DNA of 32,000 nt from Edaphobacter aggregans (GTDB lineage: Bacteria > Acidobacteriota > Terriglobia > Terriglobales > Acidobacteriaceae): contig NZ_RSDW01000001.1 of assembly GCF_003945235.1 (NCBI RefSeq), forward strand, positions 2,340,001-2,372,000. Direction: 5' to 3'. Shown one piece after another: positions 60 through 32,000 of this stretch. Each line of letters opens with the position of its first letter. Position 1 is the stretch's first letter. The notes beneath the pieces are model-generated. The model searched no databases, was not told the origin of the DNA, and worked only from the letters and a program-made list of their open reading frames with translations. Position numbers and translations under genes: made by a program.

Positions 60-569
60 CTACTCCTTGTCATACACAGTTTTCGTATCGAACTCCCCCG
101 CACTCATCGACACATGCGTCGCCTTCCGCAACACCTTTCTATCCCCCGAGAGCGAGTAGCTGGCCTTCAGCGTCCCCTCCTCCCCCTGAAAACTCACCTT
201 CTCCGTAACCACCAGCACCGGCCCCTGCCACTCCCCCTTCACACTCAGCACCCGAAACGGCGCATCGTCGGCAAACGACCCCTTCGCCAGCGGCATCTCC
301 GCTCCACCCACTTGAAACCGCAGCGTGTAATGCTGCTTCCCCTGCTCCCGCTCCAGCGTAATCTCAATCGCGAACTCATCGCCCGCCTGCTTCACCACCT
401 CGCTCTGCCGAATCGGCGGAGGCGCCTCTCCAAAATCGCTCTGCGCTACATTCAGCTTCCACGTCCCATTCATGTCAGGCTTCGACGCGGCACGCACCCC
501 ACCGCCCTGCGCAAACCCCGTCATCGCCACGCCAACCAGCAGCAAGGCAAGGCAGGAGATCTTTCTCAT
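60..569 (-). CDS. Small secreted protein of unknown function (Sec signal peptide)
   Basis: ORF 60..575. N-terminus M(SM)RKISCLALLLVGVAMTGFAQ looks like a signal peptide. On the minus strand GGAGG lies 6 nt before the second ATG (569), so 569 is preferred over 575. No family recognised. Confidence 0.6.
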   Translation of the reverse strand: MRKISCLALLLVGVAMTGFAQGGGVRAASKPDMNGTWKLNVAQSDFGEAPPPIRQSEVVKQAGDEFAIEITLEREQGKQHYTLRFQVGGAEMPLAKGSFADDAPFRVLSVKGEWQGPVLVVTEKVSFQGEEGTLKASYSLSGDRKVLRKATHVSMSAGEFDTKTVYDKE

Positions 570-602
570 GGACATCCTCCGTAATTAGGTTATACTTGAC
601 AC

Positions 603-616
603 TGTCATGAATGACA
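603..616. promoter_or_regulatory. Inverted repeat TGTCAT-GA-ATGACA overlapping the padR start codon; candidate PadR auto-operator
   Basis: Perfect 6+6 palindrome read directly. TGGACA (569-574), 16 nt, TATACT (591-596) just upstream would give a nearly leaderless padR mRNA. The function is an inference. Confidence 0.3.
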
Positions 617-1107
617 TAATAGTCTTAAGCCTGCTACTCGAGGGCCCCAAACACGGATACCGCCTCAAACAGGACGCCGCCATGTTCGCAGAGCAGCAGC
701 AACTCCACAACAACACCATCTACCCCCTTCTTAAACGCTTCCTCAAAAGCGGCTGGATCACCCAGCAGGAAGCCAACGGTGAACGCGGCCAGACTCGCCT
801 CCTCTACGCCCTCACCCCCACCGGCAAAAAAATCCTCGTCGACAAGGTCGCCGATTTCTCCGACGCCGACGTAATCAATCCGCATGCCTTTCGCCTCCGC
901 GTCGGTCTCTTCGGCCTGCTCGACAGCCCAACCCGTGAGCGCATCCTCCGCCTCCGCGACGACCATCTCGCCGCCCGCCTCGACCGCATCCACCAGATCG
1001 CCAAGGCCCACATCATCGAAGGCTGGTCCGCCACTACGATGGACCACGTCCTCAAAGAAATTCAACTCGAACGTAAGTGGATCTCCCAACTCATGACCCA
1101 AATCTAA
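607..1107 (+). CDS. PadR-family transcriptional regulator
   Basis: N-terminal winged-helix signature LSLLLEGPKHGYRL...IYPLLKRFLKSGWI...RLLYALTPTGKK typical of PadR, with a helical C-terminal extension. Confidence 0.85.
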   Translation: MNDIIVLSLLLEGPKHGYRLKQDAAMFAEQQQLHNNTIYPLLKRFLKSGWITQQEANGERGQTRLLYALTPTGKKILVDKVADFSDADVINPHAFRLRVGLFGLLDSPTRERILRLRDDHLAARLDRIHQIAKAHIIEGWSATTMDHVLKEIQLERKWISQLMTQI

Positions 1108-1136
1108 ACCGCCTCCCAGACAAGGAGAAACCCAAC

Positions 1137-1706
1137 ATGCCATCCGTCACCCTGTGGAATGAAACCAACTCCCTCTGGCTCCTCTTCGCCGTCTACTTCG
1201 TCGCCAGCATGCGTCGCATCCAGGTAAAGCGTTCGGTCCCGCTGCCTTCGTTTGAGCGCGTCTGCCTCCTGCTGACCACGGCCCTCCTCTTCTTCCCTCG
1301 CACTCATATCTCTTTCCTGGCAAATCGCTTTCATTCCAGCCGGGCCATCGGCATCTTCGGCCTCGTTCTCACGATCCTTGGCCTTGCCTTCGCCGCCTGG
1401 GCCCGTGACGTCCTGGGCCGCAACTGGAGCGGTCGCGTCGTCATCCAGGTCGACCACCAACTCATCACCGTTGGCCCCTACGCCTACGTCCGGCACCCGC
1501 TCTACACCGGCCTCATCACCGCTCTCGCCGGCACGGCACTCATCTCCGGCGACGTCGGCTCCCTCCTTGGCTTTCTCATCGCCATCAACATCTTCCGCCT
1601 CAAGGCGCACCGCGAAGAACAGCTTCTCGAGACCGAGTTCGGCGCCACCTACTCAACCTATCGCGCCCACACCGGAGGCATCCTTCCCCGCATCGCCCAC
1701 GTCTAG
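1137..1706 (+). CDS. Isoprenylcysteine carboxyl methyltransferase (ICMT)/phospholipid methyltransferase-family membrane protein
   Basis: Several hydrophobic helices and the family motif GPYAYVRHPLYTG. AAGGAG lies ~9 nt upstream of ATG 1137. The track ORF starting at 1077 overlaps the padR 3' end and is less likely. Confidence 0.8.
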   Translation: MPSVTLWNETNSLWLLFAVYFVASMRRIQVKRSVPLPSFERVCLLLTTALLFFPRTHISFLANRFHSSRAIGIFGLVLTILGLAFAAWARDVLGRNWSGRVVIQVDHQLITVGPYAYVRHPLYTGLITALAGTALISGDVGSLLGFLIAINIFRLKAHREEQLLETEFGATYSTYRAHTGGILPRIAHV

Positions 1707-1812
1707 CAGCGCTCGCTCAAAGTCACGCCCCGCCTCGCCTGCTTCACCACCTCGCTCTGCCGAATCGGTGGCGGAGCCTCCCCAAAGTCGCTCTGCGCTA
1801 CATTCAGCTTCC
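1703..1812 (-). pseudogene. Truncated paralog fragment of the 60..569 secreted-protein gene
   Basis: Bases 1736-1812 repeat 384-460 with only a few mismatches. The minus-strand reading gives KLNVAQSDFGEAPPPIRQSEVVKQA, identical to the intact gene. It then diverges (RRGVTLSERC-stop) and has no start codon upstream. Confidence 0.6.
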
Positions 1813-1962
1813 GGACTCTGCGGATTGTCTTAAGTGAGCTTCATGAAGCTATCAGACTTTATGGACCTTCGTTGCGGTAGGGTGGAAGACTTCCTAGTGA
1901 CGTAGGCGTGATGCTACATCCCTCAACACTTCTGGAGTGACCAAATCTCAGATAAGTGTTGT

Positions 1963-3693
1963 CTACGAACCAGTCTGCACACGCCGCAGCTCTTCTGACA
2001 GCAGAATCGCATCCGCAATCTCCCGCATCGATTTGCGACGTTGGCGACTTTCTTTATGCATCATCTGGTAGGCATCGTCTTCGCTCAGGGAGAGATCCCT
2101 TTGCAAAATGCTCTTAGCTCTATCCACTGCCTTCCGCGTTTCCAGTCTGTTCGATAACTGTGAATTCTCCGTCTCCAACCGCGCCCGCTCGATCTCTGCG
2201 CCTACCAGATAGCCAAGCGTCGAAAGCAATCGGACCTCATGCGTCGTGTGTTTGTAAGACAACCTGTGCTGCAGGTTGATAACACCCACCACTCTTCCCG
2301 CACACGTAATTGGAGTACACAACATCGCCTCGAAGTGGTCTTCAGGAATGTTCTTGAACGCCTTGAACCGCGGATCGTTGGAAGCACCCGAAGCGATCGC
2401 CACCGGCTGCCTGTATTTTGCGACCCATCCTGTTACTCCCTGCCCGATCTGAATGCCCACCTGATCGACAAGATCAGCGTGGGGATTTTTCGAAGCGCGC
2501 ATCACCAGGTTCTCGCCCTCAAGCACATAGACAAAACAAGAATCGCAGGGAATGACGCTCGAGATGAAGCCAACAATCCGGTCAAGCACCAGGTGAAGCG
2601 AATCAGCCGCGGCAATCCGGCTGCTGATCTCGTGCAGAAAATCAATCTGCATCAACCCATCGCGGAATCCGGCCATAGTAGGAGTGGAAGCCGCCACGCG
2701 CCTTACGGGCTTCTGTGTGTCTATTTCATCGACATCTGACACATCAGCATCCGGCTCTACGCTCTCAGAAAACACCGCTTCAATCTTGCGATTCCGTTTC
2801 TCCTCCAGCAGCCGGCCCGCATACTGCGCGGCCTCATTAACCAGAAATCCCATCTTCGGACGAGAGGGTTCAAAGTCCGGTTGAATTCCGTAATGCGCCA
2901 GCTCCTCTGACGTAGTAGGCCCAATGGACAGCACGACCACCGATTGCAATGCCCCCCGCAACTGCTCCGCGACACCCATCTGCTCGGCCACCTGGAACAT
3001 ATGAATCACCTGCACGGCCGTCATAAACAGCACCACGTCGATCACGCCGTTCAGCAGGCCCAGCACACTCTCGCGCAGTGGCTGCAGGTCTTCTGGCAGC
3101 GCCCACTGATACACCGGCACCTTTGAGAGCCTGCGGCTGCGACTGCTCAACTCAGCAAGAAACTCTGGGTTCGAAGCTCCATATTCCTGAACCGCAATGC
3201 TCATCGTGGAGACTGAATCGCCATAGGTCTCGTCGATAGCCCGCAGCAGTTCTCGCCACGTGCTGGGCTCCTCGGAGACGACATCCAGGGGAACCTTCAA
3301 CTCTCGCAGCGCGGTTGCGGGCTTCGCTCCTCGTGCCGCGATCTTGACCTTGCGCAGAGCGTCAAGAAACTCTTCTCCATCAAAGCGCGTCTGCACGATG
3401 TTGAGCATGGTTCGAACACCCACACCCGTCATAAAGACCACAAGATCGAACTCTCCCCGCAGCAGCCCCTCGGCAAACTCCAATGCCTCCGCGTTCGACT
3501 CGAGACTAACCTCACGCATGGCGGGCACGACAATCGCTTCGCCGCCGTAAGTGCGAATGAGTTTTTCAACCTCTTTCGCGCGGCGGGACTCGAGTGAAAG
3601 GACACGGAGTCCTTTGAAGCTTGCGTGCGCCACAGGTCCTCCAATCGGGTGTCGGGTGTCTCCTACCGTGCCTTCAGGGGCAGCGTTCATCAA
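1963..3693 (-). CDS. HemD-like (uroporphyrinogen-III synthase fold) / GAF / ANTAR RNA-binding antiterminator-type regulator
   Basis: N-terminal ~270 aa resembles HemD (LRVLSLESRRAKE...VVFMTGVGV...VLFMTAVQV...SIGPTTSEEL). The central GAF domain has (VTGWVAKYRQPVAI...GVINLQHR). The C-terminus has a coiled coil plus ANTAR (RKAVDRAKSILQRDLSLSEDDAYQMMHKESRQRRKSMREIADAIL). Confidence 0.8.
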   Translation of the reverse strand: MMNAAPEGTVGDTRHPIGGPVAHASFKGLRVLSLESRRAKEVEKLIRTYGGEAIVVPAMREVSLESNAEALEFAEGLLRGEFDLVVFMTGVGVRTMLNIVQTRFDGEEFLDALRKVKIAARGAKPATALRELKVPLDVVSEEPSTWRELLRAIDETYGDSVSTMSIAVQEYGASNPEFLAELSSRSRRLSKVPVYQWALPEDLQPLRESVLGLLNGVIDVVLFMTAVQVIHMFQVAEQMGVAEQLRGALQSVVVLSIGPTTSEELAHYGIQPDFEPSRPKMGFLVNEAAQYAGRLLEEKRNRKIEAVFSESVEPDADVSDVDEIDTQKPVRRVAASTPTMAGFRDGLMQIDFLHEISSRIAAADSLHLVLDRIVGFISSVIPCDSCFVYVLEGENLVMRASKNPHADLVDQVGIQIGQGVTGWVAKYRQPVAIASGASNDPRFKAFKNIPEDHFEAMLCTPITCAGRVVGVINLQHRLSYKHTTHEVRLLSTLGYLVGAEIERARLETENSQLSNRLETRKAVDRAKSILQRDLSLSEDDAYQMMHKESRQRRKSMREIADAILLSEELRRVQTGS

Positions 3694-14306: not shown

Positions 14307-17300
14307 GTGGGAGTCGTTCGTCGAGTTGTTTGCCTACTGTTTGACCTGTTTAGCTGCCGTTTTTCCCCCCGAGTTTCGAGCTCTCCCTTCCATCTTGCAG
14401 CCCTTGCACTTACGTTTTGCGCGTGCTCGCCCGCAATGCGTGCGCAGCAGGCACAGATGCAGGTCATGAGGCATCACGTGCGCCCGGAGGTGACGGACCA
14501 TCGCGCCTCCTTTGTGGGGCGACTCCCTGACGACAAGCAGATGCACCTATCCGTGGTGCTGCCTTTGCGCAATCAGGCCGCGCTTACCAGTCTGCTGCAG
14601 AGGCTCTATGATCCATCAAGCCCGGACTATCGACACTTCCTCACGGTAGCGCAGTTCACCGAACAGTTTGGTCCAACGGAACAAGACTATTCAGCGGTGG
14701 CTGCGTATTTGCAGTCACAAGGTCTGACAGTTAAACCCGCACCAGCGAATCGCCTGGTTGTTCCGGTGAGCGGCTCGATGGCCCAGGTCAATTCTGCCTT
14801 CAACGTGCAGATGAACACCTACCAGCACCCCACCGAGAACCGGACGTTCTTCTCTCCGGACCGCGAGCCCTCGTTGCCGCTGAATCTACAGGTAAGACAC
14901 GTCACAGGTTTGGATAACTTCTCGCTGCCGCATCGCTTTACGCAGCGTCCGAATACCAGCCAACAAGCTGCTGCAGTGAACGGTTCAGGTCCAGTCAATT
15001 CGTATCTTGGCAGCGATATGCGCGCGGCTTATTACGGCGGCACGACGTTGGATGGCACAGGGCAAGCAATTGGTCTGCTTGAATTCGGCGGTTATGACAT
15101 GACCGATGTCACACTGACGTTCAGCAATGCCGGACAGACGACCAACGTCCCGATCAACAATATACTGCTCGATGGTGCCACGGGTGGTCCGGAAGGATCC
15201 TACGGCGGCGAGCAGGTTTTGGATATCGTGCAGGCTATCGGAATGGCACCGGGGCTGAGCCAGGTGCGTGTTTACATCGGAGTCGGTGAGGACGATGCGA
15301 TAATTCTCAACTCCATGGCTTCAGAGAACATTGCCAAACAGTTGAGTTGCTCGTGGGGGTGGCTACCTGTTGATCCTACGACCGACGATGTTTTTTTTCA
15401 GGAGATGGCCGCTCAGGGCCAGAGCTTCTTTGCGGCCTCTGGTGACGCCGGAGCCTACGACCAGTCAATCAATCCCTTCTTTTATCCGGCCGAAGATCAG
15501 TACGTGACAGCAGTCGGCGGTACACACCTGACAACGAGCGGACCGGGCGGTACATGGGTCTCCGAGACTGTATGGGACTCGGAGGGTGATGGCAGTGGTG
15601 GAGGTATCAGTCCCGATGGCATTACTCTGCCTAGCTATCAGAGCGGCCTTGCGAATTCAGCCAATGGCGGTTCGAACACGCTCCGTAACGTGCCAGACGT
15701 CGCCATGGAAGGCGATTTTGACAACTACGCCTGTCAGGCACATCGGTGTACCGGCGACTGGGCAGGTACGAGCTTTGCCGCACCCCGCTGGGCCGGCTTC
15801 ATGGCGCTGGTGAATCAGCAAGCGGTCGAAGCTGGGACCGCACCTTCGGGAGGCCTCGGATTTCTGAATCCGGCGCTATACCAACTGGCTCAGGGAGCAA
15901 ACGCGAGCAACGACCTGCACGACATCGTCTCCGGAAACAACCGAACCCAGAACCAGCCGGTCTGGTTCAGTGCCATCGCCGGCTATGACCTGACAACGGG
16001 TTGGGGTAGTGCCAACGGGCAGAGCCTGATTAATGATCTCGCCGGCGCGCAGGTGCCGGGTTTCTGGCTTTCCAGTTCGCAGAGTGAAGTCGACGTGAAT
16101 CCGGGAGGAACCGGTACGACGACAATCAAAATTACCGATGCCGGAGGTTTCACGGACGCTGTGAATCTTGCTGTGACCTCGACGCTGCCAAGCGGAGTGA
16201 CAGCATCGTTTGCTACCAATCCGTCGACAGCTTCCAACGTGTTGACGTTCTCGGTAGACAACTTAGTCGCGCAGCAGAATATTCCCATTACGGTGACGGG
16301 TACTGCGCAATCGTTGACCCAAACCGCAACCTTGCTGCTTTCTATTCACACACCGGCCTTTGCCCTGGTGCCTTCATCAAACGGCTTGACTCTCAATCCC
16401 GGGCAGACCGTAAGCACAACAATCACCGTGTTGCCGGAGTATGGCTTTACGGGCAGCGTGAATCTCGCAATCGTCGGGTTGCCAAGTGGCGTGACCGCTT
16501 CGTTCTCGCCTACATCAACGACCGGAACCAACACGCTGACCCTGACTGCCAGCACCTCAGCAGCGGCAAACACCAACACGCTGACTATTACGGGAACGTC
16601 GGGCAGCTTGTCCGCAACGACAAAGCTAGGTCTGTCAGTTACCGGGCCGAAGTTCCTGCTGCTTGCGGGCTCGCCTGTATCGGTGGGACAGGGCAGCACG
16701 GTGTCAACCTATATCGATGTTTTACAGGAAAATGGCTTCTCAGGCGGCGTAAACCTTACGGCAACAAATCTGCCCTCCGGTGTCACTGCAACATTTTCAA
16801 CCAATCCAACGACTAGCACGTCCAGCGTCAGCTTTACGGCCAGCAACACAGCGTCTGTAGGGCAGAGCACGGTGACGATTACAGGAACATCGGGATCATT
16901 GAGCGCTACAGCCTCGATCACGCTGAATGTAATGGCGCCGTCGTTCACTTTGAACACGGCCGGCACCGTGATTTTCGGACAAGGCAGTTCTACCTCGACC
17001 TACGTCTATGTGTCGGGGCAATACGGCTTCAATGGGAACGTCGCGATGTCGGTCTCCGGCCTGCCGAGCGGCGTAACGGCGATCTGGGGGCCGAATCCCA
17101 CGAACTACAGCACCGAGCTTTACTTGTATGCAAGTAATTCCTCAACGCCGGGACAGTATCCGCTTACGATTACCGGCACCTCGGGTTCGCTGACAGAAAC
17201 CACTCCACTGACATTAACTATTGCTGCCCCAACTTTCACGATACCGTCGCTCGGTACGCTTACGATGGGAACTGGTTCAACGAACTATGCATATGTAAAC

Positions 17301-20300
17301 ATTCAGCGTTTGTACGGCTTTACCGGCAATGTTGCGTTGTCAGTGTCCGGGCTGCCTGGCGGGGTGACGGCATCGTTCAATCCCAACCCGATGGCTAGCG
17401 CAAACTTCAGCTCTTATATGTCACTGCAGGCGAGTGCTGCCACTGTGCCTGGGCAATATACGGTGACGCTAACAGGTACCTCGGGCAGCCAAACAGTCAC
17501 GACTTCGTTGACCCTGGTCATCGCGTCGCCAGGCTTTTCGTTGTCTACCAGCGGCCTGACCGTCGGGCAAGGATTGAGCGCGGGAACGTACGTCTACGTC
17601 AATCAACTCTACGGATTCAATAACGCCGTGAACCTCTCTGTTTCCGGATTGCCAAGTGGTGTAACGGCATCGTTCAACACGAATCCGACGACCTCATACT
17701 CCAACCTGCTCACATTCAACGTAGGCGCCACGGTACCCACCGGGCAATATCCAATAACCGTTACTGGCACTTCAGGCTCAATGGTGCAGACGACCACACT
17801 GACACTCACCGTAGGGGTACCGTCGTTCACACTTTCGACCTATGGAATAACGGTTGGACAGGGGCAGACTTCATCTGCCTGGGTCTATATGAACGGGGTG
17901 AACGGCTTCAACAGTGCCGTGAACCTGTCTGTCTCCGGGCTACCAAGTGGCGTAACTGCATCGTTCAACACGAATCCAACGACCTCGTACTCCAACATGC
18001 TCACGTTCAACGTCGGCGCCACGGTTCCTACGGGACAGTATCCAATCACCATCACTGGCACTTCAGGCTCTAACACCCAGACCACCACGCTAACCCTGAC
18101 CGTAGGGGTGCCTTCGTTCACGATCTACGCAGCCACTTACCCGACGATCGGCCAGGGATCGACCGGCTCAGGCTACGTCTATGCTCAAGCGCTGAATGGC
18201 TTCAGCGGTAGTGTCAACTTTTCGATTTCGGGCCTACCGAGCGGTGTGACGGCTACCTTTTCCCCTAACCCTACGACATATAGCAGCTCTATCTTATTTA
18301 CGGTTGCGAGCACGGCCGCAATCGGATCGAGCACCCTCACCATTACTGGCACCTCCGGCTCCGAGACGGAAACCACCACGATGACGCTGACGGTAGCTGC
18401 ACCCACTTTTTCGATCTATGGGCCTTACAGTGTGAGCCTTAACCAGGGAGGCAGTGCGACCTCCTACGCAACAGTGAACCCGCAGTACGGCTTCACAGGC
18501 AACGTAACCCTAAGCACCTCAGGCTTGCCCAGCGGAGTGACCGCCACGTTCTCGCCGAATCCGACGAGCGGCTCGAGCACGATGACACTTTCTGCATCGA
18601 GCACAGCCACACCGGGAACAGCGACGTTCACCATTGCCGGTACTTCGGGCAGCACCGCGACTGCTGTACAGGCTCAGGTGACGGTGAACGCGAGCAATTT
18701 CTCGCTCTCGGCGGCGCCGGGTAAGGTGTTTGCAATGCCTGGAGCTTCGGGCAAATCGACGATCAGTATCGTACCGATCAACGGCTTTGCGAACAGCGTG
18801 AATCTTTCGGTGAGCGGTTTGCCCGCCGGTGTCACAGCGACGTTTTCGCCCGCAACAGCAACGACAAGCAGCACGCTTACCCTAATGGCTAGCAGCACGG
18901 CGGCTGCCGGAAGCTCGCCCCTAACCATTACTGGAAACTCTGAAACAGAAACCGCTTCGACGCCATTGCTGCTGAATATCGAAAACACTAACGCAACGGT
19001 TACTTCAACAACGCTGGCTCTCACTGCCGGAAATACTGTGATCTCAACTGTGGCGCAAGGTGCATCTGTGACCGCAACATCCAGCGTGAGCGCAGGCTCG
19101 AATCCGGTGACAGCAGGCCAGGTATATCTCTGCGATGCAAGTGCGACATACTGCGATTTTGCGCACAAGATCGCGATGACGCAGTTGAACAACAGCGGCA
19201 ATGCCGTCTTCCGATTCGTGCCGGGTATCGGGCAGCACACCTATAAGGCTGTATTCGCTGGAACTACTGCAAACCTTACAAGTACCTCTACGTCGGTTCC
19301 GCTGGCGGTAACAGGATCACTTCCGACAACCACGACCCTCGCGCAAAGCGGGACGACTGGCAACTATACGCTGACCGCTACGGTTACAGGACAGGGAGCA
19401 GTCGCTCCGTCCGGCAATATTTCGTTCATCGATACCACCTCCAACAGCGCCGTGGCAAACGCTGCTGCGACCGTCAACGGCGCAACCATTACGGAGAGCA
19501 TTGCGCAGACCATTCCAACCAGCTCTTATCCGGCCCAAATTGTTTCCGACGATTTCAATGGAGATGGTATTCCAGACCTCGCGGTGACAACCGTAGGCTC
19601 ATCTACTGTGTCCATTTCGCTCGGTAACAGTAGTGGCAGGTTCTCAGCGATCACGACTCTTCAGCTTGGTGCGCCATCCGGTTCAATCGCATTAGGTGAT
19701 TTCAATCGAGACGGAAATGTCGACCTGGCTGTAGTCATTCCCTCGAGTGAGACGATCGCTATCTTCTTCGGCAATGGCGATGGTACGTTCACGGCTTCGA
19801 CGGCAACCGTGTATACCCCACCTCAACCTGGCGGTATCGTCGTAGCTGATCTCAACGGCGATGGCTTGCAGGATTTAGCCGTGCTCAGCACAAATAGCTC
19901 CAGTGTCACGGTCCTGCTAGGTCACGGGGACGGCAGCTTTACGCCGGCAACTTTAAGTCCTTCTACAGGTGCTTCTCCCTTTTCCGTCGTGGCGGGAGAT
20001 TTTAACGGCGATAGCGTGGCAGATCTTGCCATTACCAACTATTCCTACAGCGGATCCACGGGAACAGTGACGATTCTACTCGGCAATGGGGATGGCAGCT
20101 TCACCGCAGCCCCGACTCTTTCAACCACAACTTTGCCATACTCGATCGTTCTGGGTGACTTCAACAATGATGGAAGACAAGATTTAGCAGTTGGGGCAAA
20201 CGGTGGGACCGCCGTAAACGTGTTCCTCGGCAATGGCGATGGAACGTTCACGGCCGCACCCAACGCGCTGACGACCAGTTATGCAATGTCACTCGCTGTT

Positions 20301-22217
20301 GCAGATGTGAACGGCGACGGCAAGCTGGATCTGATCGTTGCGGACGCTAACACCTATAAGCTCACCACATTGCTCGGCAATGGAGACGGCACCTTCACGA
20401 CAGGCGCGACTATGACAGCTTCTGCACAACCTGAATCCGTCATAGTAGGTGATTGGAATGGCGACGGGGTGCCCGATCTCGCTTTCGCGAACTACTACGG
20501 CAGTTCGGTCACGACTGTCACGACGCAACGCACCCAAAAGGTCACGGCAGCGGTGAATGGTATTGCGTCGAGCGGCCCTGGACAGCAGTCGATTGCAGCA
20601 ACATATCCAGGTGACAACAGCTATACGGGCAGCACATCGAGTGCCGTGACACTGACGGGCGACAAAGTTACTCCCAACGTAACATTGACGCTTTCACCTT
20701 CCACGATCTCCTCGACGACGCCGGTTACGGTCTCGGTGCAGGTAACAGACCCGCTGAACGGCGGTTTGCCTTCCGGCACGATCACGTTGACAAGCGGCAG
20801 CTATGCTTCGGCTCCCGTGGCTCTCTCTTCAGGCCGTGGCACTATCACCATTCCTTCCGGCAAGCTGGCCGAGGGGACCGACATGCTCACGATCCATTAC
20901 ACGCCAGATACAGCCAGCGCATCGCTGTACACCGTAGCGACAGGCACGATCAGCGTATCCGTAAACCAGACCACACCGGCAATCACGTGGTTGATGCCAG
21001 TTCCGATCACCTATGGCATAGCACTAAGCGGTATGCAATTGAATGCGGCGGCATCGACGAGCGGAACGTTCAGCTACACTCCTGCGACAGGTACGGTACT
21101 GTCGGCGGGACAGCACCAGCTTTCGGTGACATTTACACCAACGGATACGACGAACTATCGAAGCGTCACCAGCACTGTGTCGCTGAATGTAAATCAGGCA
21201 CCGCTGAGTATCAGTGCGAACAATGTATCGCGCATATACGGTGCGGCGAACCCGCCGCTCTCGGGCACACTGAGCGGCGCGGTGAACGGAGACACCTTCA
21301 CCGAAACATTTTCAACATCCGCCACGGTTTCGAACTCGGCAGGCACATATGCGATTGTGCCGTCCGTGACCGGAGCCAGCCTGGCAGATTATTCTGTGGC
21401 AACCACCAACGGTACATTGACGATCTCACCGGCACCCACAACGACGACATTCAACCTCTCGAATCAGAACCTTGTTCTCACCGCAGCGGTCGCCTCGACA
21501 AGCAATGGCACTCCGACCGGATCGGTGATGTTTTATGCGGGACAAACACAGCTGGGTTCCGCGACGCTGAGCGGCGGCATTGCGACCTTCACGTTGACGT
21601 CATTTCCGAGTGGCGACGTTTCGCTCAGCGCACAATACTCTGGTGACGGCAACTTCGCGGCGTCAACTTCGGCATCCACACCGGTGCTTACGTTTAGGGC
21701 CGTCAATACCTCGCTGATAGTTGCTGCTTCAAGCTCAGTGACGGATAACTTCAGCATCACGGTGCCTTCAGGCTATACGGGAACCCTACAGTTCTCCTGC
21801 ACAGGACTGCCGCAGAATACGAATTGCAGCTTCCAACCAGCCTCGCTGTCGTTCTCCAGCACCACCAATACCGCGAGCACCATGTTGACGCTCACGACTG
21901 GCGGTCAGGCGCGCATAAATTCGATCCCCTTAACGAATACGGACGCATATGCCGTGCGATGGGCCGCGTTGTTCGCGCTGCCCGGACTGCTTCCGTTGCT
22001 GGTCAAACGGCGGCGGTTGAGTGCGCGGCTTCGCAATCTATCGCTAATGCTGCTACTCTCGAGCGCGGGTCTGTGGTTTACGGGTTGTGCAGGTGGCGGA
22101 GGCAGCAGCAACTCTTCCAAGCCGGTCACTCCGTCGGGCAATTACACCATCCAGGTAGTTGCGTCCGGTCCATCGGGCGTAAGCCAGTCGGCTGCTATCA
22201 CCGTAACTGTGCAGTGA
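14307..22217 (+). CDS. Giant secreted/surface multidomain protein: pro-kumamolisin activation domain + S53 sedolisin peptidase + 10 Ig-like repeats + Big-like domains + 7 FG-GAP blades + MBG-like domains + split terminal repeat with TM hairpin
   Basis: Activation domain LYDPSSPDYRHFLTVAQFTEQFGP. S53 motifs GGEQVLDIV, SGDAGA, GTSFAAP (Ser codon 15771-15773), DIVSGNN..GYDLTTGWGS. The only in-frame starts before the signal-like FHLAALALTFCACSPAMRA are GTG 14307 and ATG 14436. Only 14307 keeps the signal peptide, so it is chosen, but the start remains uncertain. Confidence 0.8.
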   Translation: MGVVRRVVCLLFDLFSCRFSPRVSSSPFHLAALALTFCACSPAMRAQQAQMQVMRHHVRPEVTDHRASFVGRLPDDKQMHLSVVLPLRNQAALTSLLQRLYDPSSPDYRHFLTVAQFTEQFGPTEQDYSAVAAYLQSQGLTVKPAPANRLVVPVSGSMAQVNSAFNVQMNTYQHPTENRTFFSPDREPSLPLNLQVRHVTGLDNFSLPHRFTQRPNTSQQAAAVNGSGPVNSYLGSDMRAAYYGGTTLDGTGQAIGLLEFGGYDMTDVTLTFSNAGQTTNVPINNILLDGATGGPEGSYGGEQVLDIVQAIGMAPGLSQVRVYIGVGEDDAIILNSMASENIAKQLSCSWGWLPVDPTTDDVFFQEMAAQGQSFFAASGDAGAYDQSINPFFYPAEDQYVTAVGGTHLTTSGPGGTWVSETVWDSEGDGSGGGISPDGITLPSYQSGLANSANGGSNTLRNVPDVAMEGDFDNYACQAHRCTGDWAGTSFAAPRWAGFMALVNQQAVEAGTAPSGGLGFLNPALYQLAQGANASNDLHDIVSGNNRTQNQPVWFSAIAGYDLTTGWGSANGQSLINDLAGAQVPGFWLSSSQSEVDVNPGGTGTTTIKITDAGGFTDAVNLAVTSTLPSGVTASFATNPSTASNVLTFSVDNLVAQQNIPITVTGTAQSLTQTATLLLSIHTPAFALVPSSNGLTLNPGQTVSTTITVLPEYGFTGSVNLAIVGLPSGVTASFSPTSTTGTNTLTLTASTSAAANTNTLTITGTSGSLSATTKLGLSVTGPKFLLLAGSPVSVGQGSTVSTYIDVLQENGFSGGVNLTATNLPSGVTATFSTNPTTSTSSVSFTASNTASVGQSTVTITGTSGSLSATASITLNVMAPSFTLNTAGTVIFGQGSSTSTYVYVSGQYGFNGNVAMSVSGLPSGVTAIWGPNPTNYSTELYLYASNSSTPGQYPLTITGTSGSLTETTPLTLTIAAPTFTIPSLGTLTMGTGSTNYAYVNIQRLYGFTGNVALSVSGLPGGVTASFNPNPMASANFSSYMSLQASAATVPGQYTVTLTGTSGSQTVTTSLTLVIASPGFSLSTSGLTVGQGLSAGTYVYVNQLYGFNNAVNLSVSGLPSGVTASFNTNPTTSYSNLLTFNVGATVPTGQYPITVTGTSGSMVQTTTLTLTVGVPSFTLSTYGITVGQGQTSSAWVYMNGVNGFNSAVNLSVSGLPSGVTASFNTNPTTSYSNMLTFNVGATVPTGQYPITITGTSGSNTQTTTLTLTVGVPSFTIYAATYPTIGQGSTGSGYVYAQALNGFSGSVNFSISGLPSGVTATFSPNPTTYSSSILFTVASTAAIGSSTLTITGTSGSETETTTMTLTVAAPTFSIYGPYSVSLNQGGSATSYATVNPQYGFTGNVTLSTSGLPSGVTATFSPNPTSGSSTMTLSASSTATPGTATFTIAGTSGSTATAVQAQVTVNASNFSLSAAPGKVFAMPGASGKSTISIVPINGFANSVNLSVSGLPAGVTATFSPATATTSSTLTLMASSTAAAGSSPLTITGNSETETASTPLLLNIENTNATVTSTTLALTAGNTVISTVAQGASVTATSSVSAGSNPVTAGQVYLCDASATYCDFAHKIAMTQLNNSGNAVFRFVPGIGQHTYKAVFAGTTANLTSTSTSVPLAVTGSLPTTTTLAQSGTTGNYTLTATVTGQGAVAPSGNISFIDTTSNSAVANAAATVNGATITESIAQTIPTSSYPAQIVSDDFNGDGIPDLAVTTVGSSTVSISLGNSSGRFSAITTLQLGAPSGSIALGDFNRDGNVDLAVVIPSSETIAIFFGNGDGTFTASTATVYTPPQPGGIVVADLNGDGLQDLAVLSTNSSSVTVLLGHGDGSFTPATLSPSTGASPFSVVAGDFNGDSVADLAITNYSYSGSTGTVTILLGNGDGSFTAAPTLSTTTLPYSIVLGDFNNDGRQDLAVGANGGTAVNVFLGNGDGTFTAAPNALTTSYAMSLAVADVNGDGKLDLIVADANTYKLTTLLGNGDGTFTTGATMTASAQPESVIVGDWNGDGVPDLAFANYYGSSVTTVTTQRTQKVTAAVNGIASSGPGQQSIAATYPGDNSYTGSTSSAVTLTGDKVTPNVTLTLSPSTISSTTPVTVSVQVTDPLNGGLPSGTITLTSGSYASAPVALSSGRGTITIPSGKLAEGTDMLTIHYTPDTASASLYTVATGTISVSVNQTTPAITWLMPVPITYGIALSGMQLNAAASTSGTFSYTPATGTVLSAGQHQLSVTFTPTDTTNYRSVTSTVSLNVNQAPLSISANNVSRIYGAANPPLSGTLSGAVNGDTFTETFSTSATVSNSAGTYAIVPSVTGASLADYSVATTNGTLTISPAPTTTTFNLSNQNLVLTAAVASTSNGTPTGSVMFYAGQTQLGSATLSGGIATFTLTSFPSGDVSLSAQYSGDGNFAASTSASTPVLTFRAVNTSLIVAASSSVTDNFSITVPSGYTGTLQFSCTGLPQNTNCSFQPASLSFSSTTNTASTMLTLTTGGQARINSIPLTNTDAYAVRWAALFALPGLLPLLVKRRRLSARLRNLSLMLLLSSAGLWFTGCAGGGGSSNSSKPVTPSGNYTIQVVASGPSGVSQSAAITVTVQ
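16054..18989 (+). repeat. Ten in-frame tandem repeats (~291-297 nt, ~97-99 aa) of an Ig-like domain with core ..GF.G.VNLSVSGLPSGVTA.F.PNP...TLT.TGTSGS...T.LTLTV
   Basis: The GLPSGVTA cores recur near 16474, 16766, 17059, 17349, 17646, 17937, 18231, 18522 and 18816, with a first degenerate copy near 16190. Repeats 6 and 7 are nearly identical in protein sequence. Confidence 0.85.
19536..20525 (+). repeat. Seven FG-GAP/VCBS-type repeats (predicted 7-bladed beta-propeller) inside the giant gene
   Basis: Seven copies of D.NGDG..DLAV ... (L/F)LGNGDG(T/S)FT read from the translation. Confidence 0.8.
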
Positions 22218-27657: not shown

Positions 27658-28143
27658 CTAGGTGATGGCGCTCCAGTCGTCGATGGCTTCAGAGCCGTTG
27701 GGAATGTTGATGTCGATCTTCTGAAAGGTGAGGGAGATCTCCTGCAGTTCGCGTGAGTCGATGATGGGCCCTCCGGATTGAGGGAGCGCAACGGACTGCT
27801 TGACGGAGGCGATGCTGGCGTTGGTGAGTTTGATGGTGTGGCTGAGTTGCTGGACACCGGTCTTGTCGAGTGAGAAGAAACTGAAGAGTACCGTGGTGAG
27901 AACTTCGTTGGTGTAGGCAGCGGTGTAGAACTGCGGTGAGGATGCGCCCCACTCCTTGGAGAAGACGACGGGCTGGTGCTGGCGTCTGCCGGAGGCCTGG
28001 CCGCTAGCGATGTCGTGAGGGACGATGACGCCGTAGCTGAAGCCAACGACGGGGAGCATCTTCTCGCGGCCTTTTTGGGTGGCTTCGCCTTTGAATGCTC
28101 CCTGTTTGGCTCCGGTGACGGTTGCGTAGATCTGAACGGCCAT
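27658..28143 (-). CDS. hcp: Hcp (TssD) family type VI secretion tube protein, orphan copy
   Basis: 161 aa. MAVQIYATVTGAKQGAFKGE...VVGFSYGVIVP...GRRQHQPVVFSKEWGASSPQFYTA...L matches the Hcp1 pattern. AAGGAG RBS. No other T6SS genes in the window. Confidence 0.75.
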   Translation of the reverse strand: MAVQIYATVTGAKQGAFKGEATQKGREKMLPVVGFSYGVIVPHDIASGQASGRRQHQPVVFSKEWGASSPQFYTAAYTNEVLTTVLFSFFSLDKTGVQQLSHTIKLTNASIASVKQSVALPQSGGPIIDSRELQEISLTFQKIDINIPNGSEAIDDWSAIT

Positions 28144-30621: not shown

Positions 30622-31218
30622 TCAGTGTTTCCAATGGAGGTCAGGACCACGGAAGAGTACGCCAGCGCCGATGCGGAACTGGTTTTGTCGATTGCCCTGG
30701 ACGTTTCTGAGTTCGGAGTAGAAGTAGTCTGCCTGCAGGGCGCGGATCCAGATGTGCCTGGATACGGAGATGTCGAGGCCACCGCCGACGGTGAGGGCGA
30801 AGGAAGTGTCGTAGCTCGTTGGCAATTTGCCAACGGGTGCGGGAAAGTAGCCGTCGAAGCCGTGGACGCCTCCGAACAACGCCTGGCCAAAGGGCTGGAA
30901 GCGGGTGTGGTTGGGCACGCGCATCCGCAGGCCGCCCATGCCGTAGAAAAGGCTCAGGCCCGTGTTGAAGTTGGGGAGGTTCCCTGTGGTGTGTCCCCCC
31001 ATTTCGGCGACGGCTGAAATGTTGCGCCACACGGGCACGGAGATGCCACCGTGGCCCCCGCTCATCCAGAAGCATCCGCAGCCTCCCACAGGAGCGTTGG
31101 CACGCATCTCACTATAGACGGCGTAGGCGTCCAGGGTGTTCGATGGCTTCTGGGCCATAGCTGCCAGAGAGAGCGACAACAGCAGCGCGTAGGCGAAGAC
31201 TTGCGTCAGCTTATTCAT
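30622..31218 (-). CDS. Small outer-membrane beta-barrel protein (OmpA-like/OMP_b-brl type)
   Basis: Signal peptide MNKLTQVFAYALLLSLSLAAMAQ and alternating strands ending ..LFRGPDLHWKH. AGGAGG RBS. The start lies 8 nt after the upstream surface-protein stop. Confidence 0.7.
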   Translation of the reverse strand: MNKLTQVFAYALLLSLSLAAMAQKPSNTLDAYAVYSEMRANAPVGGCGCFWMSGGHGGISVPVWRNISAVAEMGGHTTGNLPNFNTGLSLFYGMGGLRMRVPNHTRFQPFGQALFGGVHGFDGYFPAPVGKLPTSYDTSFALTVGGGLDISVSRHIWIRALQADYFYSELRNVQGNRQNQFRIGAGVLFRGPDLHWKH

Positions 31219-31226
31219 CGCTCCTC

Positions 31227-32000
31227 CTATTCCACAATCAGCGTTACGGTAGTGTTGTGAACCAAGTTGCCGCTGGTTGCGGTGATGGTAATAACATAGG
31301 ACTGCTGCGTCTGGTTGAAGTAGCCGCCGGTTCCACAGCCAGCGATTGCTCCAAACGATATCAGCGCCAGCAGCAGCCACAAAAGCGCGCCAGGTCGTCC
31401 GCGTGCTCTTCTCAGTAGCGCGAAGGGTACTAGCAGCGTCGCAAATACCAGTGGCGTGCGAGAGCTCCGGTCGAGTGTGGCATTCTGTTTTGGAACGTTG
31501 ACGGTCATGGTCGATTGGACGCCGTCAGCTCCCGGTATTACAGGATTAGGACTGAAGGTGTAGCTTGCTCCCGCGGGTAGTCCCGACGCGCTCAGCGTTA
31601 CCGGACTGTTGTATGGAAGATTCAGATCAGGGATCTTGATTGCAAAGTTAGCAGCCCCCCCAGGCGGGACCGTCTGCGGCGGCGTGGGGCTTATGACGCC
31701 GAAGTCCGGCGCGAGGATAGTCACACTGACCAACGCGAACGGCGTTATTGTTGTGAAGTTTGTATCACCGCTATATGAAGCCGTGAGCGTGCGTTCTCCA
31801 ATAGGTAGCGTGGTGGTAATCAGCGTCGCCGTGCCATTGACGATCGCCACGGTGCCGAACGCCGTGCCGCCGTCGTAGAAGGTAATGGTCCCGGTTGCGC
31901 CTGCATTGACCATTGCCGTCAGCGTTACCGGATTACCCTGCACAGTTTGGCTTGGTGACGCAGTCAAAGTGACGAAAGTGCTCGCCTTGGTGATCGTCAG
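31227..32000 (-). CDS. 3' end of a large Ig-like-repeat surface protein (5' end outside the window) with C-terminal split-repeat/TM-hairpin/lipobox module
   Basis: The frame stays open to the window edge (..LTITKASTFVTLTASPSQTVQGNPVTLTA.., Big_3-like repeats). The C-terminus parallels that of the giant protein. Confidence 0.75.
   Translation of the reverse strand: MTITKASTFVTLTASPSQTVQGNPVTLTAMVNAGATGTITFYDGGTAFGTVAIVNGTATLITTTLPIGERTLTASYSGDTNFTTITPFALVSVTILAPDFGVISPTPPQTVPPGGAANFAIKIPDLNLPYNSPVTLSASGLPAGASYTFSPNPVIPGADGVQSTMTVNVPKQNATLDRSSRTPLVFATLLVPFALLRRARGRPGALLWLLLALISFGAIAGCGTGGYFNQTQQSYVITITATSGNLVHNTTVTLIVE

Follow-up and report, generated by a model that had tools for sequence, protein, structure and literature searches.

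Bacterial lipoproteins are anchored at their N-termini only, the lipid going onto the first residue left after removal of the signal peptide. The closest described system to the element reported here is the NCBIfam family NF058595 ('invert_tail'), the lipo-invert putative C-terminal anchoring domain, whose model has 113 positions and a curated whole-protein cut-off of 37 bits; its name suggests C-terminal lipid anchoring, and its function is labelled 'putative'. We analyzed a stretch of 32,000 nucleotides (nt) from Edaphobacter aggregans (the window, in whose numbering the coordinates of all elements are given) and examined the C-terminal tail of a secreted protein encoded on the minus strand, the tail of a second, giant protein encoded on the plus strand, and the small outer-membrane beta-barrel gene that follows the minus-strand gene. 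The minus-strand tail matched NF058595 with 48.2 bits (model positions 4-112) and the giant-protein tail with 70.9 bits (model positions 2-113), and the minus-strand match ran to the last residue before the stop codon, which places the module at the extreme C-terminus. The same model was matched by 18 of 18 further related tails, and Pfam gave no match for the tail. On these profile matches, the tail is a member of the lipo-invert C-terminal anchoring family, from which the window tails show no difference in kind. As far as we have seen, the family is represented by a database model to which a putative function is attached. Since it has already been curated by NCBI, the finding of the family is in itself a rediscovery, and what is added here is the proof that the module splits a domain, together with its association with a barrel gene.

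The minus-strand gene is represented in the window by its 3' part (31227..32000, minus strand; 257 codons plus the stop codon), as its 5' end is cut by the window. A full-length carrier, P0018 (1423 amino acids, aa), has a tail identical to the window fragment and lies on a 76-kb contig that has the neighbour genes of the window. P0018 begins with a Sec-type signal peptide (MVPSLVLRCRPVLNRLLLLLSVIAASTVLRAQ) that contains no Cys, so the bulk of the 1423-aa protein is exported, and Sec-type signal peptides were likewise found at the start of the complete carriers of the module. The domains of P0018 are NHL/beta-propeller, Big_3_5 and MBG_2, and a Big_3_5 match falls at residues 12-87 of the window fragment. 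The source annotations of the carrier proteins were uninformative ('hypothetical protein', 'titin', 'YVTN family beta-propeller protein').

Within the tail, the N-terminal part of the last immunoglobulin (Ig)-like domain (strands A-E; 31494..31709), which aligns column for column with uninterrupted domains, is followed by an insert of 64 residues in which a hydrophobic helix and an Arg-rich loop precede a lipoprotein-type signal and a Gly-rich linker. The insert starts with the linker PKQNATLDRSSRT (31455..31493), which carries a semi-conserved P-x-Q-[ST]-A motif, and continues with hydrophobic helix 1 (PLVFATLLVPFALL; 31413..31454), recognized by hydropathy and read as a putative stop-transfer segment. 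The Arg-rich loop RRARGRPG (31389..31412) is probably cytoplasmic and doubles as the n-region of the internal lipoprotein-type signal, whose hydrophobic h-region (ALLWLLLALISFGAIAG; 31338..31388) matches a PROSITE PS51257-like core pattern. The lipobox IAGC (31335-31346) ends in the Cys (codon TGT, 31335..31337; residue 222 of the fragment) that is the predicted site of diacylglycerol attachment and of LspA cleavage, and the Cys and the Gly-rich linker GTGGYFNQTQQ (31302..31334) carry the motif C-G-x-G-G-[YF]-F-x-Q that is conserved in the family. Strands F and G, the last two of the same Ig-like domain (SYVITITATSGNLVHNTTVTLIVE; 31230..31301), then match positions 72-96 of the intact-domain profile described below, and the gene closes with the stop codon TAG (31227-31229), all of these elements being on the minus strand. 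By position, the lipobox Cys is approximately residue 1388 in the protein of 1423 aa, which puts it 35 residues before the C-terminus, and past the basic loop the chain runs 61 residues more. The sequence that an earlier note on this DNA had quoted for the protein is the same as the translation of 31227-32000 except that seven residues (TLDRSSR, between ..PKQNA and TPLVF..) had been left out, and the Cys codon that the note had placed at 31335-31337 does read TGT.

The earlier note had described the tail as a split repeat, and this description is borne out by the existence of uninterrupted homologues, by the gain of an intact-domain profile on removal of the insert, and by structure prediction. 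A search for homologues yielded two classes of protein, one with the insert (P0001-P0007) and the other with uninterrupted copies of a ~97-residue domain (P0008-P0016), and in a joint alignment the insert formed a single clean gap, one block of 60-78 residues directly before 'xYxITITATSG'. A profile built from the uninterrupted copies only matched the native tail in two collinear pieces, with profile positions 1-69 on residues 1-75 (strands A-E; 48.7 bits) and positions 72-96 on residues 135-159. When the insert was taken out, the minus-strand tail was matched in one piece with 83 bits, as compared to 51 bits for the N-terminal part alone, and the giant-protein tail showed the same behaviour in weaker form (34.4 vs 28.5 bits). 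AlphaFold2 placed both halves in one seven-strand sandwich (predicted local distance difference test, pLDDT, 93-98), with strands A-E at 93-96 and the two strands after the Cys (136-146 and 149-159) at 97-98, and predicted helix 1 at model residues 87-101. Foldseek searches with the tail model returned Ig-like domains (a sialidase linker domain at E 1e-4, the S-layer protein SbsC, and FimC); whole-domain homology and the seven-strand fold both identify an Ig-like beta-sandwich. By the alignment, the insert sits in the loop between the fifth and sixth strands of the last Ig-like domain. Judging by strand order only, this loop would lie at the same pole as the C-terminus of the domain and opposite its N-terminus, so that the domain would rest on the membrane and the remainder of the protein would project away from it. 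Another protein of the repeat family, P0017 (4872 aa), has 39 uninterrupted repeat copies and ends with ..RVEAFGNQDQTIGIEGGFSF, which is not a lipo-invert tail and whose terminal Phe resembles the outer-membrane barrel signal; C-terminal anchors apparently differ within the Ig-like repeat family.

By six-frame profile scanning and by regular-expression scanning, exactly two copies of the module were located in the window. The second copy (21750..22217, plus strand) is the tail of a 2636-aa S53-peptidase/FG-GAP/Ig-repeat protein encoded by the open reading frame (ORF) 14307-22217, and the order of its elements matches that of the minus-strand protein, as the earlier note had reported: helix 1 (21960-22004), the basic loop (22005-22037), the h-region (22038-22085), the Cys codon (22086-22088) and the last strands (22140-22214) follow each other on the plus strand. 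The two window tails share only 23-24% identity. The giant protein has an N-terminal pro-kumamolisin/S53 peptidase region, FG-GAP repeats, Big_3_5 and MBG_2, and carries, in tandem, about 10 copies (~97 residues each) of the Ig-like domain found split in the tails; in its own tail, the linker after the Cys is longer and Ser-rich, with 42 residues to the end.

The second half of the insert resembles classical lipoprotein signals of signal peptidase II (PS51257; processed by Lgt, LspA and Lnt, and then Lol) in its positive n-region, its uncharged h-region of about 20 residues, and its lipobox L-[ST]-[GA]-C with an invariant Cys and small residues at +2. The Cys was present in all 143 of the 143 C-terminal tails checked, in each case within a lipobox (LSGC 41, LTGC 35, MTGC 11 and LTAC 11 among the contexts), and the PS51257-like core was matched by both window tails and by 139/145 family tails. 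Across the family, the h-region has a median length of 20 residues (17 in the minus-strand tail), the loop joining the two hydrophobic segments carries a net charge of +5 (median), and 33-41 residues (median 35) come after the Cys, the first of them being Gly in almost every member and in none Asp. The minus-strand tail itself has a positive n-region, an uncharged h-region and a lipobox of the form [LVI][ASTVI][GAS]C. Its position, however, differs from that of classical lipoprotein signals, in which the Cys falls within about the first 35 residues: the module signal lies ~60 residues from the C-terminus of proteins of up to 3000 aa, it is preceded by a putative stop-transfer helix, and the 'mature lipoprotein' would be only ~35 residues long. 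In helix 1 a Pro is almost invariant (143 of the 145 rows having that column), and in the P-x-Q-[ST]-A motif the column counts were P 76, Q 52 and A 90 among 220 aligned rows. A twin-arginine translocation (Tat) signal was also considered and rejected on our own reading of the sequence, as RRARGRPG is without the S/T-R-R-x-F-L-K consensus and the exported piece would be a 35-residue hairpin.

To describe the spread of the module, a profile of nine tails was searched against 1.84 billion cluster representatives. The profile matched 6098 proteins at E<=0.001, a count that includes proteins matched through uninterrupted repeats alone (5 of the best 150 were such), and 1193 cluster representatives at E<=1e-10. 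Among the best 150 matches, 145 covered the profile end to end, and 143 of these 145 end no more than 3 residues from the C-terminus. Many Acidobacteriaceae genomes contained such loci, with several per genome, and so did more than 150 confirmed metagenomic stretches.

Downstream of the minus-strand module, the stop codon TAG and an 8-nt spacer, GAGGAGCG (together 31219..31229, minus strand), which holds a Shine-Dalgarno-like sequence, lead directly to the ATG (31218) of the next gene, in agreement with the 8-nt distance given in the earlier note, and this gene is translationally coupled to the module gene. It spans 30622..31218 on the minus strand and is predicted from synteny, AlphaFold2 and Foldseek to encode an outer-membrane beta-barrel protein of 198 aa that has eight strands and a signal peptide. 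The protein scored 24.4 bits against PF13505 (OMP_b-brl; profile positions 3-175), below the gathering threshold of 28.7, and many of its close homologues do have a precomputed PF13505 match. Its AlphaFold2 model has 8 strands (mean pLDDT 78.6), and the best Foldseek hit was NspA (1p4t; E 2.4e-7, TM-score 0.79 when normalised to target length), followed by Ail, OmpA, OmpX and OmpW. In the model, the signal peptide and eight strands are those of a small outer-membrane barrel, and it shares these features with NspA, Ail/OmpX, the Opa family, the OmpA N-domain and OmpW; it differs from these small barrels in that it belongs to a tight subfamily with an N-A-P-x-G-G-C-x-C loop and is coupled to a lipo-invert gene. 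Identities of the barrel homologues are 70-85%, and the Joint Genome Institute (JGI) lists these proteins as 'outer membrane immunogenic protein' or 'opacity protein-like surface antigen'; one of them, P0207, is from cultured Edaphobacter aggregans, and NCBIfam has no model specific to the barrel.

The earlier note had named the barrel as a possible partner of the module, and its presence downstream in most related loci agrees with this proposal. A genome scan with tails of the window's subfamily yielded 27 loci, all in Acidobacteriaceae or Edaphobacter and up to 4 per genome, and a metagenome scan with a second subfamily ('PGKRRRRW') yielded 80 loci. Immediately downstream, and on the same strand, 18 of 26 genomic modules and 76 of the 77 metagenomic modules with room downstream have a barrel homologue, and a barrel was directly downstream in 4/7 modules of the loci that were looked up (two of these four being the window's own locus), confirming the pairing in metagenome-assembled genomes (MAGs) and in metagenomes. 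In 85 related loci, the spacer between module and barrel is 8-14 nt long and contains GGAG. When the search was reversed and started from the barrel proteins, a module-bearing Big_3_5/FG-GAP protein was found 8 nt upstream in 3/3 places. There was no third conserved gene, as no flanking family beyond the pair occurred in more than 9 of 94 loci and no protease or sortase was conserved there, which fits the use of housekeeping enzymes and not of a dedicated sortase. Between the two tail subfamilies, barrel identity is only ~30%, and the stretch best kept even across this distance is the loop after strand 1 (N-A-P-x-G-G-C-x-C; residues 40-49). The long loop between strands 5 and 6 (GYFPAPVGKLPTSY) was modelled at pLDDT <50, yet it holds residues that are invariant within the close subfamily. 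Conserved loops are unusual for small outer-membrane barrels, and those seen here may mark a binding site.

Taken as a whole, we consider it probable that the tail is a lipo-invert C-terminal anchor, comprising a stop-transfer helix, a cytoplasmic loop and a complete lipoprotein signal inside an Ig-like domain, and that the barrel is its partner. According to this proposal, the N-terminal signal peptide would export the body of the protein until helix 1 halts translocation, the Arg-rich loop would remain in the cytoplasm as expected from the positive-inside rule, and the second hydrophobic segment would insert in the manner of a signal peptide and carry the last ~35 residues across the membrane. 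Lgt would lipidate the Cys and LspA would cut in front of it, and the lipidated peptide, made up of the Cys, the Gly-rich linker and a beta-hairpin, would supply strands F and G of the Ig fold. The cargo would thereby be locked to the lipopeptide by strand complementation, and since the lipopeptide would be part of the fold, the cargo would be lipid-anchored at its C-terminal end. The module looks like a way round N-terminal-only lipid anchoring, as a lipoprotein signal placed inside the last domain would allow the lipid-bearing fragment to stay part of the fold. The barrel product would be the likely outer-membrane partner for docking or exposure. In E. coli, Asp at +2 bears on the membrane destination of a lipoprotein, and a destination in the outer membrane would fit both the lack of Asp at +2 and the outer-membrane barrel gene coupled to the module. 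In the SEA domains of mucins and the GAIN domains of adhesion G protein-coupled receptors, the chain is cut inside the domain and a shared beta-sheet keeps the pieces joined, and the tether proposed here, in which a large piece would be held non-covalently to a small membrane-bound piece by strand complementation, is similar to these. However, SEA and GAIN domains cut themselves and are eukaryotic, whereas the module would be cut by LspA in the membrane and would have a lipid tether, so the likeness would be one of mechanism with no homology. If the proposal is true, LspA and Lgt are able to work on internal sites, bacteria use strand complementation as a tether in the way SEA and GAIN domains do in animals, and many huge, unannotated Ig-repeat proteins of soil Acidobacteriaceae are tethered to the membrane by this route.

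More tentatively, and with less confidence than we place in the anchor itself, we propose that tail and barrel form a self-contained two-gene system for C-terminal lipid anchoring in the outer membrane, in which the barrel, with its C-x-C loop, docks or exposes the complex. The housekeeping enzymes Lgt and LspA would act inside the Ig-like domain, the lipidated 35-residue beta-hairpin would hold a cargo of up to 3000 residues, and the barrel would possibly take the Gly-rich linker through or alongside itself. In the complexes of RcsF with OmpA, OmpC and OmpF, the linker of the lipoprotein is threaded through the barrel. The module bears a speculative likeness to the RcsF-OmpA pair, as it too would combine an outer-membrane barrel with a lipoprotein whose Cys is followed by a flexible linker, and RcsF-like threading could explain the presence of a conserved, Gly-rich linker of ~12 residues beside a dedicated barrel. 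The two differ in that the barrel of the module is dedicated and co-transcribed, while RcsF uses a general porin. Such a two-gene system would be a new protein-sorting route in diderm bacteria, and the tight pairing with a dedicated small barrel provides a concrete and testable partner.

Several observations weigh against the internal-signal anchor and its barrel partner. After cleavage by LspA, the large fragment would keep helix 1, the loop and the h-region, and because helix 1 would still be attached, transfer to the outer membrane would need a further cut, for which the Pro and Gly of helix 1 and the P-x-Q-[ST]-A motif are only candidate features. Helix 1 is also short (14 residues here; the family median for the uncharged run is 16), and AlphaFold2 modelled the helical hairpin between the halves of the domain at only pLDDT 58-68. 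Neither LspA nor Lgt is known to us to act on an internal signal, and a literature search gave no precedent; searches on inverted, internal-lipobox or C-terminal lipoprotein signals returned nothing relevant, and no paper was found on the lipo-invert family, NF058595 or invert_tail. The HPI S-layer protein of Deinococcus, taken up as a candidate precedent from the literature, was set aside as it is described with an ordinary N-terminal lipobox. With respect to the barrel, inspection of the ORFs downstream of the giant-protein module revealed no barrel gene, and the barrel was missing beside 12 of 110 sampled modules with room downstream, so it is not an obligatory neighbour. In addition, the metagenomic loci are largely from JGI, with related contig-name series and partly repeated orthologues.

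These same gaps in the pairing would be expected if the barrel were a mere syntenic neighbour in one lineage with no functional link to the tail, and the barrel does come from a common class of small outer-membrane proteins. We nevertheless regard a mere neighbour as quite unlikely, since module and barrel stay together although their cargo and gene surroundings change, several paralogous pairs occur per genome, the spacing is tight at 8-14 nt, and the pairing is found in two tail subfamilies whose barrels have diverged to ~30% identity. Recent local duplication, or a chance likeness of two repetitive tails, could be imagined because both window proteins are built of related Ig-like repeats able to carry a tail along on duplication, and the earlier note had said that a pattern confined to these two paralogous tails would point to duplication. 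More than 1000 protein clusters were found to carry the module, and the family-level module proposed in the note is upheld by the 1193 representatives and by its curation as NF058595. With both tails above the NF058595 cut-off and the pattern in more than 1000 protein clusters, chance is excluded, and as the two tails are so far apart in sequence and the module recurs at 27 Acidobacteriaceae loci and in over 150 metagenomic stretches, the probability left to duplication or chance is negligible.

The main alternative concerns the membrane topology, and is that the module is an uncleaved helical-hairpin anchor in the cytoplasmic membrane, with the protein remaining one chain and the Cys kept for lipidation without cleavage or for helix packing. 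AlphaFold2 does predict a hairpin of two helices between the domain halves, such a hairpin would by itself suffice as an anchor, and no enzyme for the release of helix 1 was found near the genes. An uncleaved hairpin would, however, have no need of a lipobox as perfect as the one seen (Cys in 143/143, the core in 139/145, and a near-universal Gly after the Cys), and it leaves unexplained both the placement of the anchor inside the domain rather than after it and the coupled outer-membrane barrel gene. For these reasons we judge it unlikely, though less so than a barrel without function in the system. A further possibility is that helix 1 and the basic cluster are a sortase-type sorting signal cut by a dedicated enzyme, with the lipopeptide a separate product fused by chance. 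The C-terminal signals LPXTG/sortase, PEP-CTERM/exosortase, GlyGly-CTERM/rhombosortase and MYXO-CTERM share with the module their C-terminal position in large secreted proteins with several domains; a hydrophobic helix with an Arg/Lys cluster behind it is common to the module and these tripartite signals, of whose layout helix 1 and the Arg cluster would be the last two parts, and the Pro and Gly that are nearly invariant in helix 1 would be suited to intramembrane proteolysis. In contrast to tripartite signals, the chain of the module runs on through a second hydrophobic segment and a lipobox to two beta-strands, and the module is without a signature motif, a model match or the gene of a dedicated sorting enzyme nearby: there was no PEP, LPXTG, GlyGly or other signature motif before helix 1, none of the NCBIfam sorting-signal models except NF058595 matched at E<=1, and no sortase-like gene was conserved nearby in 94 loci. 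PEP-CTERM and other tripartite signals were accordingly rejected as assignments for the tail, the helix and basic cluster not being at the protein end. Moreover, what follows the Cys shows homology to strands F and G of the same domain, so the lipopeptide is not an unrelated fusion, and a sortase-type signal is in our estimate improbable, more so than the uncleaved hairpin.

Some of the module-barrel loci showed further features. In two cases, identical barrels were found in one MAG: L018 and L019 are two module-barrel pairs in opposite orientation on a single 15.8-kb MAG contig (CAVSQQ010000001.1), and L021 and L022 lie at two contig ends of one MAG; in these cases the cassette was either duplicated very recently or doubled by an assembly artefact. 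In five loci (L006, L008, L014, L040 and L100) the barrel gene is apparently broken across reading frames, and these could be assembly frameshift errors or genuine pseudogenes. At L033 (the P0025 contig, positions 400-3340), the module-barrel pair adjoins a phage-type integrase and a ParA-like gene, a context which hints that the cassette can sit on a mobile element. At the giant-protein gene of the window, a short-chain dehydrogenase-like ORF converges on the gene in place of a barrel. Elsewhere in the window, an Hcp-like gene (PF05638, T6SS_HCP; 27658-28143, minus strand) is isolated amid small hypothetical genes, the window showing no further type VI secretion genes, and the genes for YceD, ribosomal protein L32 and PlsX follow this region.

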